Shown here one piece after another: positions 1,892 through 27,498 of a stretch of 64,000 nt of DNA (the first letter of the stretch is position 1; each line of letters starts with the position of its first letter). The notes beneath the pieces were generated by a model. It had not been told where the DNA came from. It saw only the letters and a program-made list of their open reading frames with translations, and did no database searches. This DNA is from a phage: sequence record PZ171035.1. One strand, given 5' to 3'. The position numbers were made by a program, and so were the translations under genes.

Positions 1892-2205
1892 ATGGCAAGC
1901 ATCGACTCCTTGACTGTATGTAATTCACGTCAAGCTCGTAACTTTATTATCCGTGCCCTGAAAGCAGGTAACGTACCGTTCCTGACTTCATCACCTGGCA
2001 TGGGTAAATCTGCAATCATTCGTTCTATTGCAGAAGAATTTGGTATGAAGTTAATTGACCACCGTCTATCTACTTCTGCCCCGGAAGACCTGTCTGGCTT
2101 ACCTTTCCGTAATGGTGACCGTGCAGAGTTTATTCCATTCGCTGACTTATTCCCCATTGAGGGAGACGAAGTACCAGAAGGCTATAATGGCTGGCTCTTA
2201 TTCCT
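1892..2205 (+). CDS. AAA+ ATPase (MoxR/AAA_5-like), exon 1
   Basis: Walker A SPGMGKS; ORF ends in LLFL followed by stop; joining to 3088 restores Walker B LLFLDEFN. Confidence 0.6.
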
Positions 2206-3087
2206 TAACTAACGGGGCTTCATGAGAGCAATCTCATGTCGAAAGTTACCTAAACAGGGAACCTCTTCTAAACTGGTTGGCTCAAGTGTATACTTGAGTT
2301 TTAATCAATTGGAGACAATCCTGTGCTAAATAATGAAATTTGGAAAGATGTGCCCGGCTTACCGTATGAAGTTTCCAACTTTGGCGTAGTACGCCGAAAG
2401 GAAGGAAAGTATAAATACAAAAACAGGACACATATAAAACCGTATCTTAATAACAAAGGATACTACTGCGTGAACCTGTACATGAATAGTAAAGTGTACA
2501 AATACCAAGTTCACCGTCTGGTAGGATTAGCCTTTGTACCAAACCCTAATAACTATCCTGTTATTAATCATATAGATGGAAACCCTCTTAATAACCACGA
2601 GAGTAACCTGGAATGGTGTACCCAGTCTCATAACATGAAACATGCTTGGGATACTGGACTGCAAACAAACAGGCACGCTAATGCTAGTAATAAAAATCGT
2701 GGAGGCTCCTCCAAATATGTAGGCGTATCCTGGAGTGAGCAAAGACAAAGATGGTGTGCCCATATAAGGGTTAACAAGAAATCTATTGGTTTGGGACGTT
2801 ACAAAACAGAGGAAGAAGCTGCTAAAGCTTACGACTCCTACGTAACTAATAACAATCTTACACAGATTGGGTACAGTACCAATTTCATTTAAACGCCAAA
2901 CGACTATCGAAAACACACAGAAATGTGGAAGTGAGTAGAGTAGGGTGCAAGCCAATGGCACTCGAAACGGTAACAGCCCTAGCAATAGGGCTTTGATATA
3001 GTCTCCTCTGCATGGTGACATGCAGCAGTCAGTATTCACTGAGTGTACTGACGGCATTAGTAGTTGCGAACTAATGTGAAGATAATG
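2206..3087 (+). mobile_element. group I intron with embedded HNH homing endonuclease gene
   Basis: Interrupts the ATPase ORF inside Walker B; exon 1 ends in U (2205) able to G-U pair with GGGG at 2214-2217 (P1); intron ends in G (3087); P7-like pairing GACTAT(2902-2907)/ATAGTC(2998-3003); GATATAGTCTCC resembles the S element; several stem-loops incl. CTGCATG-GTGA-CATGCAG (GNRA loop). Confidence 0.6.
2323..2892 (+). CDS. HNH homing endonuclease with NUMOD4-like N-terminus and AP2-like DNA-binding domain
   Basis: GTG start with GGAGA RBS; EIWKDVPGLPYEVSNFGVVRR (NUMOD4-like); HIDGNPLNNHESNLEW (HNH); YVGVSW...RWCAHIRV...GRYKTEEEAAKAYD (AP2-like). Confidence 0.75.
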   Translation: MLNNEIWKDVPGLPYEVSNFGVVRRKEGKYKYKNRTHIKPYLNNKGYYCVNLYMNSKVYKYQVHRLVGLAFVPNPNNYPVINHIDGNPLNNHESNLEWCTQSHNMKHAWDTGLQTNRHANASNKNRGGSSKYVGVSWSEQRQRWCAHIRVNKKSIGLGRYKTEEEAAKAYDSYVTNNNLTQIGYSTNFI

Positions 3088-3826
3088 CGATGAGTTTAAC
3101 TCAGCTAAGAAAGAAGTAGTAGCTGCTGCATACAAACTAATTCTCGACCGTATGACTGGTCAGAAAAAACTCCATCCTAATGTGATGATTGTCTGTGCTG
3201 GTAACAAAGCTACCGACCGTGCCATTGTTAACCCACTGGGTACTGCAATGCAGTCTCGTGTGATTCACTTCGAGATGGAACTCAACTTCGACATCTTTGT
3301 TGAAGACGTAATGATTCCTCAGCAATGGGATGAACGTCTGGTTGCATTCTTACATGCTAACCCAGGTTATCTGCATGACTTCGACCCAGCCCATAAGAAC
3401 AAAACATTCTGTTGTCCACGTACTTGGGACTTTGTTAACAAAGACCTCAAGAATCAGCCGGAAGGTGCTCTGCCTGATGAAGATTCTATCTACTATGCAG
3501 GTCACGTTACTGCCGGTAAAGCTACAGAATTTGTTCAGTTTACTCAGGTATATAATCGTATCATTACGATTGAGAAGGTAGTCAAAGACCCACTGGGCTG
3601 TGCATTACCGGAAGATAACAACCTGTGCTGGGCTACCGTTAACCATCTGGCTAACAAAACTACTGAAGAGAATTTCGCTGAAGTTCTTCAGTACATTGAA
3701 CGCTTTAAAACGTTCACCCATAAGATTCTGTACTTCCGCACAGTAGGCAAAGCATTACCAGAAATTCAGGCTACACCTGAATGGCGTAAGGCTGCTGCTA
3801 ATGTCTCTCGTTACATTCACGGGTAA
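3088..3826 (+). CDS. AAA+ ATPase, exon 2
   Basis: Frame open from 3086; reads DEFNSAKKEVVAAAYKL...VMIVCAGN (sensor-1-like); the ORF-track start at 3152 is an internal Met. Confidence 0.6.
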
Positions 3827-5009
3827 TCACAAAATGAACCAATTTCCTCAGCACACACTTAGTGATGAACAACTCATGCGTGAGTATGACCGTATTCAGG
3901 CCCAAGCCTTCCTGGGCAAGTCTGCTGCGTTCTTTGGTTCATTACTGTGTAGCCTTAAATTCTCATGGAAACGTGAGGATTGTCCCACTGCATGTACCGA
4001 TGGGATAGAACTCCATTTCAACCCAGATTTCTTTATCTGGATGTGTCCAGATGCAAGAGAAACAGTGTTAATGCACGAATTATGGCATGTGGCATATCTA
4101 CATGACATCCGTCGTGGAAGCCGTGACCCAGAAGTCTGGAACCAGGCATGTGACCACTTCATTAACCTTCAGTTAGAAGAGGATGGTTATAAGTTCACTG
4201 GTATTGATGAAGGCATTTGCAAAGACCCCCAATATAAAGGATGGGTCGAAGAAGACATCTACGATGACCTGATGAAGAACCCTCAGAAAAGGCAGAAGCC
4301 GTCAGGGGGTGCTGGAGCAGGTCTTGCTGGCGACATGAAATCCCCCACTTCGGGGCAGTCCCAGGGTGCTGTTGTCAACAACGTAGTACGTGCAATGCAG
4401 AGCCAGAAGATGGCAGGTGGAACAATGCCCGGTAAAGGTGCTGGTCGTATGGAAGAGGTTATTACCCAATTCCTTAAACCAGTGGTTCCATGGCAGGAAG
4501 TCCTTATGAACTTCTTTACCGACATTGATGACACTCATTATACGTGGGCCAGACCTAACCGTCGTTACACTGACATCTATCTACCTTCTTTAGAAGATGA
4601 TGAAGGGCGTTTACGACACTTAGCCTACTTTGAGGATGTATCTGGTTCCATCAGTAGTGCTGACTCTCTGCGTTTTAACTCAGAGGTTGCCTACGTTAAG
4701 AGCCAGTTTAATCCTAAGAAGATGTCATTAATTACCTTCGACGATATTATCCAAGAAGAGATAGACATCACTGAAGAAGATACTTTTGAGGAGATTAAGA
4801 TTACTGGTCGTGGTGGTACAAACCTGGAACCAGTGCGTGATTGGATTATTAAGAATAAGCCAACCGCTGCAATCATATTCTCCGATATGTATGTTCGTCC
4901 AATGGAAGAATTGCCATTTGATATTCCTATCATCTGGTGTGTTCTGAATAATCCCAATGCTACCGTACCTTTTGGGGAGGTAGTTCATATCCCTAAAGGA
5001 ATGAAATAA
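3801..5009 (+). CDS. vWA-domain protein with metallopeptidase-like HExxH motif
   Basis: 402 aa; HELWH motif in N-terminal half; C-terminal half vWA-like; alternative in-frame start at 3834 just after ATPase stop. Confidence 0.55.
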   Translation: MSLVTFTGNHKMNQFPQHTLSDEQLMREYDRIQAQAFLGKSAAFFGSLLCSLKFSWKREDCPTACTDGIELHFNPDFFIWMCPDARETVLMHELWHVAYLHDIRRGSRDPEVWNQACDHFINLQLEEDGYKFTGIDEGICKDPQYKGWVEEDIYDDLMKNPQKRQKPSGGAGAGLAGDMKSPTSGQSQGAVVNNVVRAMQSQKMAGGTMPGKGAGRMEEVITQFLKPVVPWQEVLMNFFTDIDDTHYTWARPNRRYTDIYLPSLEDDEGRLRHLAYFEDVSGSISSADSLRFNSEVAYVKSQFNPKKMSLITFDDIIQEEIDITEEDTFEEIKITGRGGTNLEPVRDWIIKNKPTAAIIFSDMYVRPMEELPFDIPIIWCVLNNPNATVPFGEVVHIPKGMK

Positions 5010-25513: not shown

Positions 25514-26557
25514 AATCTAAACTAAGCGGAAAAGTTAGCTTTTTCTTGGGTGTAGAACCTGTTGAAGGAAACAAAGAATTTCACATTGAATAGTTAATAT
25601 CGTGAAGGGTTCTGTTAGAATCCTTTGAGATAGGAACTCCTATCATAACTATTCTTAACTTAATCATTGCCGTATGGCACTGACGCTAGGGGTGGCCCCC
25701 CCATCCGTCAGGTAGACTATTTTAAGAATGGATTATCACAGCAAATGTAAAGCAACATTCGGGTTAATCAATGGCCTCTCCCTATAGGGGCCATTTCTGA
25801 ATCTTAGGCTATATCCCAAAGGTTAGTATCTTTGGGATAAGGCTTCAGATCCCTTATCAACTAACGCTCGTGTTGAGCATTTTAATCACATAAGCCCCTA
25901 TATGGGCTGGGTTAAATGTCGGATAGCAAAGCTACCTACAGCATCGAATTGTTAGGTCTTACATGTAATATAGGGTATAAAGGGAGGACTCGTCCCCTCC
26001 CTCCTATTATGACATCCTATCAATGAGTACATTAAGCTAACGTGCGGAGGTTTACACTGTAGCCGGTGTAGGTGGAGAAGACGGCAGGGTAGCTACCTGT
26101 GCTTAGTGTACTCTTTGATAGTTTTCGTAAGCGATTATGCGGTTTTTTAGAAACGAACCAATAACATAAATGCAAACGATGATGTTGTTCTGATGGCGGC
26201 GTAATAGCCTGTAAGTCAGCAAGGTCTTCCGACTCCTTGTAAGCAAATTCGGCGCAGTGGCCCGCTGTGATTAATAATGGGCACACAACAGGTAAGAGCA
26301 TTTAGGCTACTGAGAAATCATCCGAGGCAATCAGACCTATCTTCTGTTAAGTGCTCTTTCCGTTGTGGTGAATGCGCAGGCTGATGCGCAGTGGGACGTG
26401 GCTGACTCACGAGGATGGCTCAAGCGAATAAGCAAGCTCGACGCCGCCGAATAAGCGCCTTATGCCGGAGATCAGCACCGGCCACCACAACAAGTCCAGA
26501 CGATATCTGAGTGACTATAAAAACAGATGGAGCCAGGTGGAATCCCTGGCAACTAAT

Positions 26558-27332: not shown

Positions 27333-27408
27333 TACCCGGTAGGCTTAGTGGTAAAGCCCCACTAGTAAACCAACTAGGACGCAGGTTCGAATCCTGTCCG
27401 GGTAGCCA
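27333..27408 (+). tRNA. tRNA (anticodon not resolved)
   Basis: Acceptor TACCCGG/CCGGGTA, D-arm GGCT-TAGTGGTAA-AGCC, T-arm GCAGG-TTCGAAT-CCTGT, discriminator G plus CCA; anticodon arm pairs only with a shifted, non-canonical register. Confidence 0.55.
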
Positions 27409-27413
27409 TTTAT

Positions 27414-27498
27414 GCCCACTTAGCTCAGTGGTAGAGCGCAGGAAAGCTTCGAGAGAACAAGGTGTCTGTGGTCACTGGTTCAAATCCAGTAGTGGGTA
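27414..27498 (+). tRNA. tRNA, 85 nt, probably long-variable-arm type (anticodon not resolved)
   Basis: Acceptor GCCCACT/AGTGGGT, D-arm GCTC-AGTGGTA-GAGC, T-arm ACTGG-TTCAAAT-CCAGT; no CCA encoded; no canonical anticodon stem found by eye. Confidence 0.5.

Follow-up and report, generated by a model that had tools for sequence, protein, structure and literature searches.

A predicted td-like group I intron with an HNH endonuclease gene in the Walker B motif of a Gamaleyavirus ATPase

An interrupted ATPase gene and its boundaries

The window considered here is a stretch of 64,000 nt of phage DNA (sequence record PZ171035.1), which by sequence comparison belongs to a Gamaleyavirus coliphage (Schitoviridae, N4-like, G7C group). 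Near its beginning lies a gene for an AAA+ ATPase (1892-3826, 1935 nt), interrupted by an insert of 882 nt that itself contains an open reading frame (ORF) for an HNH/AP2 endonuclease. An earlier note, made from the letters alone, had read this arrangement as a group I intron splitting the ATPase inside its Walker B motif. The analysis reported here makes splicing of that kind very probable, and the sequence of the insert places it as a mobile subgroup IA2 intron of the T4 td lineage. Coordinates of the exons, the ribozyme helices and the endonuclease gene are collected in Table 1.

Intron-less homologues are plentiful and define the insert. When 1892-3826 was used as a megablast query against 50,697 phage records, 59 matched, all of them Gamaleyavirus of E. 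coli, Shigella or Klebsiella (91-94% identity), and the ATPase was present in every Gamaleyavirus record recovered. Among the matches listed, at least 36 related records carry a match of 1052-1053 nt under a single ATPase coding sequence (CDS), colinear with the gene as spliced in silico; relative to the uninterrupted 1053 nt, the gene in the window has 882 nt extra. Comparison with one such allele, that of ECBP1 (NC_018854, 9906-10958), bears out to the base the insert that the earlier note had delimited, with the ATPase resuming in frame at 3088: the two sequences are colinear up to TTCCT(T), exon 1 corresponding to nt 1-314 of the ECBP1 gene, and again from (C)GATGAG.

Left unspliced, the ORF (1892..2212, + strand) runs past the last exon base, U2205, and terminates after GWLLFLN. 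Walker A (SSPGMGKS, aa 33-40) lies in exon 1, as does the hydrophobic part of Walker B, the strand WLLFL, while exon 2 resumes at C3088 with C GAT GAG TTT AAC, that is, (L)DEFN. Joining 2205 to 3088 in silico yields CT-C GAT and with it LLFLDEFN, as the earlier note had foreseen, in a 1053-nt ORF of 350 aa with one terminal stop; Walker B (LLFLDE, aa 101-106) occurs only in this spliced product. Pfam AAA covers aa 31-146 of the spliced protein, across the junction residue 105 (27.3 bits, cut-off 21.2), and phrog_1297 matches residues 4-349 in one stretch (E = 9e-134). Because midasin AAA modules align the LDE of their Walker B to LDE 104-106 at the junction, the insert falls at the point where the hydrophobic strand of the motif gives way to its catalytic D-E. 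With both Walker A and Walker B present, the protein may be classed as an AAA+ ATPase of MoxR/dynein-related type.

Two further profiles, phrog_16335 and phrog_21479, match the N-terminal part of the ATPase only. One of them is 68 residues long, the same length as the fragment encoded by exon 1 in the A-type allele described below, and both look like families built from fragments of intron-split genes.

The reading frame is kept whether the insert is drawn as 2206-3087 (T...G) or as 2207-3088 (A...C). The second corresponds to a junction 2206/3089 that reproduces the CTT codon exactly, but its intron would end in C3088. The junction 2205/3088 is preferred because 2206-3087 is the only frame-keeping option with both a U as last exon base (U2205, or U(-1)) and a terminal G (G3087), and because CTC still encodes leucine. 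On this choice the ligated RNA is predicted to read UUAUUCCU followed by CGAUGAG; the intron begins with UAACUAAC and ends with AUAAUG, within a terminal block, UGAA(G/C)AUAA(U/C)G, that it has in common with td and the A-type intron.

Related introns occupy two other sites in the same gene. The intron in the window, which we call type B, lies after CDS nt 314 and occurs at the same length of 882 nt in U1G and NAN33P5, so that type B is found in only three phages. Type A (868 nt) follows CDS nt 200 in pSb-1 and PW8 (701-1568 in both extracted loci), and type C (865 nt) follows CDS nt 648 in NAN33P5 (2031-2895 in the extracted locus), which therefore has two introns, B and C, in one gene. Types A and C also obey the rule of U(-1) and terminal G, and removal of either likewise leaves a 1053-nt ORF with a single stop.

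These boundaries bear on an alternative in which an HNH endonuclease gene without any ribozyme was inserted and the ATPase assembles from two polypeptides (1892-2212 and 3152-3826). The annotations of U1G (RefSeq), pSb-1 and PW8, with two ATPase CDSs flanking an HNH gene, are in line with it, as is the ATG with an open frame at 3152; genes split by a homing endonuclease gene that function as two chains are also known in T-even-like phages. A two-chain ATPase would, however, be missing the Walker B D-E together with the 20 residues after it. Without splicing, codons 3088-3151 are untranslatable, because the first in-frame start is ATG 3152 and the frame is closed just upstream by TGA/TAA stops. 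A ribozyme-less insertion is further contradicted by adherence to the U(-1)/terminal-G rule at three independent sites, each restoring exactly 1053 nt, and by the 312 non-ORF bases discussed in the next section, whose homology to td and other accepted introns and whose helix-preserving covariation set them apart from neutral filler. We regard it as extremely improbable.

Ribozyme homology, structure and predicted splicing

The part of the insert outside the ORF resembles accepted group I introns. In blastn searches against T4 it matched td (E = 1.7e-9) and nrdB (E = 2e-7), and pairwise alignment with td identifies shared blocks in J3/4-P4-P5 (CUAAAC(A/G)GGGAACCUCU), P5'-J5/4-P4'-P6 (GACAAUCC(U/C)GUGCUAAAU), J6/7-P7 (AACGACUAUC) and J8/7-P7' (GAUAUAGUCU). 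In a sensitive blastn search of a 2.3-Gb phage database, the non-coding stretch at the 3' end of the insert (2893-3087) matched 595 phage records, with E down to 1e-22. All five hits examined lie inside split genes, two of them annotated as joined CDSs. They are the thyA gene of Dickeya phage JA29, which holds a GIY-YIG ORF; the portal gene of Vibrio phage F100, which holds an HNH ORF; the terL gene of Pseudomonas phage KIL1, recorded as a joined CDS; the PaoP5 DNA polymerase gene; and, in Bacillus phage AR9, the beta gene (rpoB) of the virion RNA polymerase, whose CDS comprises six joined pieces.

Covariation was assessed in an alignment (A1) made with MAFFT from six ORF-removed introns, those of the window and its five sisters, together with the KIL1, AR9 and PaoP5 introns; a td-style structure was mapped onto it from the window sequence and pairs were counted. 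P5, P6a, P9.1, P9.2 and the P1 of type C were misaligned by MAFFT and are therefore outside the formal count, being documented sequence by sequence instead. In A1, standard pairs fill 89.6% of cells, a figure that drops to 29-40% once the 3' partners are displaced by 1-3 columns. Both sides are changed in 27 of the 55 pairs, and none of 500 shuffles reached the covariation score. The nested-only minimum free energy fold of the ORF-deleted intron (-109.7 kcal/mol, z = -4.1) independently recovers P2, P3, P4, P5, P5b, P6a, P8, P9, P9.1 and P9.2.

Table 1. Features of the interrupted ATPase locus in the window (strand + throughout; 5' strand / 3' strand for helices)
Feature	Position	Strand	Details
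ATPase exon 1	1892..2205	+	aa 1-104 and first two bases of the Leu105 codon; from the ORF list
ATPase exon 2	3088..3826	+	starts C GAT GAG (D-E of Walker B); stop codon 3824-3826
Predicted group I intron, subgroup IA2 (T4 td-like)	2206..3087	+	882 nt; absent from uninterrupted homologues
P1	2202-2205 / 2214-2217	+	exon UCCU / internal guide GGGG; loop UAACUAAC; U2205-G2214 wobble marks 5' splice site
P2	2221-2227 / 2232-2238	+	hairpin CAUGAGA-GCAA-UCUCAUG
P3	2245-2250 / 2969-2974	+	GUUACC/GGUAAC
P4	2254-2259 / 2319-2324	+	ACAGGG/UCCUGU; 3' strand overlaps GUG start codon 2323-2325
P5	2263-2266 / 2311-2314	+	CUCU/GGAG (GGAG is the endonuclease ribosome-binding site); domain 2263..2314 encloses P5b
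P5b	2281-2286 / 2293-2298	+	CUCAAG/CUUGAG
P6	2325-2326 / 2895-2896	+	GC/GC
P6a	2332-2340 / 2881-2889	+	AAUGAAAUU / AAUUUCAUU; perfect 9-bp complement; closes the loop that holds the ORF
Homing endonuclease gene	2323..2892	+	189 aa, GTG start, stop 2890-2892; NUMOD4 (5-53), HNH_3 (61-105), AP2 (130-174)
P7	2902-2907 / 2998-3003	+	GACUAU/AUAGUC; guanosine-binding helix
P7.1	2916-2919 / 2924-2927	+	hairpin CACA-GAAA-UGUG
P7.2	2943-2948 / 2958-2963	+	hairpin GGGUGC-AAGCCAAUG-GCACUC
P8	2975-2981 / 2986-2992	+	AGCCCUA-GCAA-UAGGGCU; four pairs changed on both sides
J8/7 and P7 3' strand	2993..3003	+	UUGAU and AUAGUC; conserved GAUAUAGUC element
P9	3008-3014 / 3019-3025	+	hairpin CUGCAUG-GUGA-CAUGCAG
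P9.1	3029-3034 / 3046-3051	+	UCAGUA/UACUGA; peripheral
P9.2	3055-3061 / 3070-3076	+	CAUUAGU/ACUAAUG; peripheral
Terminal guanosine (omega-G)	3087	+	3' splice site, within UGAAGAUAAUG followed by C

Toward the 5' end, the guide strand covaries with the exon, being CCU/GGG at sites A and B and UCGU/GCGA at site C. P2 keeps 7/7 pairs in all three intron types with five pairs changed on both sides (UGUGGGG/CCUCACA in type A, CAGGGGA/UUCCCUG in type C). P3, as tabulated for type B, becomes GCUAUC/GAUAGC in type A and GCUGCC/GGUAGC in type C, and P4 takes the forms ACAGGG/UCCUGU, AUGGGG/UCCCAU and AACGGG/UCCGUU in the three types, its 5' strand block being conserved with T4 td. P6 is AC/GU in type C, and P6a has type-specific equivalents (AUUAAUGAAAG/CUUUCAAUAAU in A, GGGAGUCAG/CUGACUUCC in C). 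The P5b pairing is kept in U1G and NAN33P5 through a change from A-U to G-U, and types A and C have helices of their own at this place. A candidate P5a (AAAC/GUUU) is not claimed: it is lost in U1G and NAN33P5 and clashes by one base with P5b.

In the 3' part, P3 and P7 cross to form the pseudoknot expected of group I introns. P7, the GACTAT/ATAGTC pairing of the earlier note, is invariant in all nine aligned introns and identical in T4 td; because it never varies, the case for this helix is one of homology and not of covariation. P7.1 is paired in 92-100% of cells (8/9 sequences; AR9 is misaligned and type C gapped) and shows compensatory changes, all variants being GNRA-looped: CACA/UGUG, CGCA/UGCG (U1G), CGUA/UACG (type A), CAGA/UCUG (KIL1) and CGGC/GCCG (PaoP5). 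P7.2 is paired in 100% of the cells counted (one row gapped), with five of its six pairs changed on both sides; it is CAACUC/GAGUUG in AR9, GGGUC/GAC(U/C)C in KIL1 and PaoP5 and, by eye, GAGCAU/AUGCUC in type C, which is not in register in A1. An initial model of P7.2 (GAGU...ACUC with a bulge) gave way to GGGUGC/GCACUC once the AR9, KIL1 and PaoP5 introns had been compared. P7.1 and P7.2 are hallmark helices of subgroup IA, and their presence assigns the intron to that subgroup, as td.

The J8/7-P7' element, in which the earlier note saw an S-like sequence, is invariant across A1 and in T4 td and aligns to the RF00028 consensus GAUAUAGUC; the sequence at 2995-3006 is GATATAGTCTCC. P9 is paired in 100% of cells with three pairs changed on both sides, and its 21-mer CUCUGCAUGGUGACAUGCAGC is identical in T4 td. 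At the places of P9.1 and P9.2, types A and C have the helices UAUAUG/CAUAUA, GUAGAG/CUCUAC, GUUC/GAAC and GCGUAGU/ACUACGU. The single GNRA-capped hairpin remarked on earlier has become four: P2 (GCAA), P7.1 (GAAA), P8 (GCAA) and P9 (GUGA). Homology to td and an IA2 structure with compensatory changes thus uphold the identification of the insert as a group I intron.

Several observations weigh against splicing as described. P1 is short, at 4 bp, two of them G-U, and no convincing P10 was found, with nothing complementary to the exon 2 sequence CGAUGA in the P1 loop. The weakest part of the model is P5/P5a, a type-specific and only weakly supported region. The predicted spliced codon is CTC, as opposed to CTT in every intron-less allele examined (a synonymous difference), and DNA alone would equally allow an insert of 2207-3088, ending in C. 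The covariance-model search that the earlier note proposed as a check also fell short: RF00028 gave no hit in the scans of the whole window, the one at the gathering threshold among them, and a permissive scan of 2100-3200 (1.1 kb) returned 22.2 bits with E = 0.0038, the gathering score being 50, and aligned P7, P8, GAUAUAGUC and P9. This low score is most likely caused by the 570-nt ORF in P6a, which the model cannot bridge, because the ORF-less relatives (AR9, KIL1 and PaoP5 introns) have RF00028 scores that, from highest to lowest, are 102, 95 and 72 bits, and all ORF-bearing introns scored reach only 24-39 bits, the sisters of the window intron 24-36.

A weak P1, a missing P10 and a sub-threshold Rfam score would also fit a decayed group I intron, in which the homology to td is real, splicing has been lost and the ATPase has become a pseudogene. 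Such decay is very improbable in view of the core helices, which are all intact, and of the conserved J and P7 nucleotides, which are identical to td. The differences among the three type B copies are all structure-neutral, the exons keep an intact 350-aa frame that fits the family profile over its full length, no Gamaleyavirus record recovered lacks the ATPase, and the endonuclease ORF is under purifying selection (see below).

In the favored reading, 2206-3087 is a splicing group I intron whose action may be envisioned as follows. One pre-mRNA would be transcribed, and the intron would fold as a P1-P9.2 ribozyme with the P3-P7 pseudoknot, P7.1 and P7.2. A free guanosine held in P7 would attack after U2205, positioned in P1 by its wobble with G2214; the U before the insert, its possible G-U pairing with GGGG at 2214-2217 and the terminal G, all remarked on in the earlier note, are indeed present. 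The freed 3'-OH of U2205 would attack after G3087, and the exons would be joined as CU-C GAU, encoding Leu105-Asp106, with restoration of the Walker B motif and of the 350-aa ATPase.

The endonuclease, sister introns and mobility

The ORF inside the intron carries three recognizable modules, as expected from the earlier identification of an HNH/AP2 homing endonuclease: NUMOD4 (41.1 bits, Pfam cut-off 23.4), HNH_3 (34.5 bits, cut-off 24.8) and AP2, also above its cut-off. It matches I-HmuI (PDB 1U3E) with E = 5.9e-12, NHIDGNPLNN being aligned to DHKDGNKDNN, and matches PHROG HNH families as well. No canonical start other than GTG 2323 lies upstream of the conserved N-terminus; the corresponding codon of the A-type intron is ATG. 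Synonymous and non-synonymous codon differences among the three type B endonuclease ORFs stand at 17:5, 24:6 and 23:7, consistent with purifying selection.

That the gene has its own ribosome-binding site, as first noted, holds true (GGAG 2311-2314, eight nt upstream of GTG), but its placement has to be redrawn: it does not lie simply upstream of P7 but in the P6a loop, with an initiation region that overlaps P5'/P4'. The ribosome-binding site is the P5 3' strand, the GUG lies inside the P4 3' strand and the P6a 3' strand is made up of the last codons, so that the initiation region would be buried in the ribozyme core. Because the binding site and start codon belong to P5 and P4, folding of the ribozyme and initiation of endonuclease translation are probably mutually exclusive, to judge from this anatomy. 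No sigma-70-like promoter was found inside the intron with a tool whose coverage does not extend to N4-type promoters.

Antisense ORFs overlie the intron in several phages. In the window, an ORF of 202 aa (2527-3135, - strand) covers the 3' part, and minus-strand CDSs annotated as "hypothetical protein" lie over or beside the non-coding 3' part in pSb-1 (1554-1730), Vibrio phage F100 (1499-1708) and PaoP5 (1649-1942; extracted loci, all - strand). All of these are most likely spurious.

The distribution of the type B intron indicates recent homing. The ribozymes of the three type B phages differ at only 4-7 of 312 positions (98-99% identity; seven differences between the window and U1G), and every difference falls in a loop or is compensatory or a wobble. 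The ATPase exons of the same phages are 90.7-92.0% identical, no closer to one another than to intron-less phages, and the exons in the window are 94.2% identical to those of intron-less ECBP1. Near-identical ribozymes in such divergent exons, in three phages only, together with the mostly synonymous codon differences in the endonuclease ORF, form the pattern to be expected of a recently spreading homing element with an active endonuclease. When related phages infect the same cell, the I-HmuI-like endonuclease would nick or cut intron-less copies of the ATPase gene, its predicted target being close to the Walker B codons, and recombinational repair would copy the intron into the cut allele. 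No further intron copy was found in the 64-kb window by motif scans, by tblastn with the three endonucleases or by the permissive Rfam scan.

Each sister intron has its own NUMOD4-HNH-AP2 ORF, and the endonucleases of the three types are only 33-37% identical, a divergence to be expected of enzymes with different target sites. The 5' exon triplet CCU, the guide pairing CCU/GGG and the intron start UAACUAA are common to types A and B. The ribozyme modules, compared in A1 between the ORF-deleted window intron and those of pSb-1 and NAN33P5, form a mosaic: P7-P7.2 is 89% identical between B and A and 56% between B and C; P3'-P8 is 76% identical between A and C, with either at 41-48% to B; and P9 is 96% identical between B and C, with either at 65-70% to A. 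This mosaicism suggests recombination between introns.

A tentative extension, which we think rather unlikely as a whole, is that these elements are a radiating td-like intron family with at least two changes of site within the ATPase gene, in which endonuclease initiation in P5'/P4' of types A and B acts as an RNA switch between splicing and expression. Site switching is considered because types A and B share CCU/GGG and the intron 5' end, identity between their endonucleases amounts to only about 36% and the modules are mosaic; such a pattern would fit introns that moved by reverse splicing or illegitimate homing, later had their endonucleases replaced and recombined with one another.

Two peculiarities belong to the A-type alleles. 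A possible P10-like pairing, ACUA/UAGU, between the P1 loop and exon 2 UAGU is seen only in the A-type intron. In pSb-1 and PW8 the serine after the junction (CDS nt 201-206) is encoded by AGT, and by TCT in all other alleles.

Neighboring and distant features of the window complete the inventory. In U1G and pSb-1, an additional free-standing HNH endonuclease gene lies between the ATPase and the DUF2201 metallopeptidase/VWA genes (extracted-locus coordinates: U1G, 2443-2935; pSb-1, 2471-2921). The window, compared over 3801-5009, has no such extra HNH gene after the ATPase, whose stop overlaps the start of a VWA-like gene. Farther away, two adjacent tRNA-like genes lie within 27333-27498: ARAGORN calls only 27333-27408, leaving the anticodon undetermined, and Rfam also calls an 85-nt tRNA at 27414-27498, with a stretch of 24 nt where the model has 11. 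A weak tmRNA-like Rfam hit at 26101-26204 (region 26101-26253) scores 31 bits, below gathering.

Significance and relation to known introns

A full-text literature search found no description of introns in Gamaleyavirus or in this ATPase gene. For N4-like phages it yielded a single case, a group I intron in the td gene of Vibrio phage pVa5 (PMC5746245). As far as the search listing shows of the U1G paper, the word "intron" does not occur in it, and all that the U1G RefSeq record carries is a pipeline note, "Phage intron," on the HNH gene. The components, a td-type IA2 intron and an I-HmuI-type HNH endonuclease, and their combination are already known from phages, and no new mechanism is proposed.

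The consequences are practical as well as biological. The U1G, pSb-1 and PW8 records list ATPase fragments and even spurious antisense ORFs over the ribozyme, where recognition of the intron would restore a single 350-aa ATPase to the annotations. Likewise, ORF-bearing phage introns of this td-like kind are missed by standard Rfam scans at the gathering threshold. N4-like coliphages would join the hosts of td-type IA2 introns, and this gene, with sister introns at three sites and a natural allele that has two of them, should offer an easy E. coli system for studies of homing, site switching and the coupling of splicing with translation.

Among known systems, the closest is the T4 td intron (IA2, encoding I-TevI), which has the same set of helices, P7.1 and P7.2 included, and likewise loops its ORF from P6a. 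The J3/4-P4-P5, P5'-P4'-P6, J6/7-P7 and J8/7-P7' blocks are homologous, and the 21-nt P9 and terminal AUAAUG are identical. In both, the 5' exon ends in U, the intron begins with UAA, and the conserved catalytic region of a phage enzyme gene is interrupted. The two differ in setting, the td intron lying in thymidylate synthase of a T-even myovirus and the window intron in an AAA ATPase of an N4-like podovirus. I-TevI is a GIY-YIG enzyme that starts about 70 nt beyond P6, whereas the window endonuclease is an I-HmuI-like HNH protein with AP2, its start in P4' and its ribosome-binding site in P5'. The window intron also has an extra P5b hairpin in P5 and a shorter P1, and its splicing is a prediction from sequence.

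I-HmuI (1U3E) is a nicking HNH endonuclease of the SPO1 DNA polymerase intron, itself a phage IA2 intron. In comparison with the I-HmuI and I-HmuII introns of the Bacillus phages SPO1 and SP82 (DNA polymerase gene), the N-terminal and HNH modules of the window endonuclease align with I-HmuI residues 3-106, but I-HmuI ends in a helix-turn-helix where the window protein has AP2, and the target gene differs too.

The introns of AR9/PBS1 RNA polymerase beta, KIL1 terL and PaoP5 DNA polymerase have 3' cores that can be aligned base for base with that of the window, and AR9 resembles the ATPase system further: one of its genes is interrupted by several introns, and an ORF within an intron combines HNH with AP2. 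The AR9, KIL1 and PaoP5 copies that were aligned are, in contrast, ORF-less, lie in other genes and hosts, and cannot be aligned in P1-P2 and P5. Finally, the multiple introns of B. cereus nrdE and of orf142 in Staphylococcus phage Twort invite comparison with the three sites in the ATPase gene and with NAN33P5, which has two of them occupied; they belong to another family and gene, while ATPase sites A and B have the CCU triplet and UAACUAA start in common.

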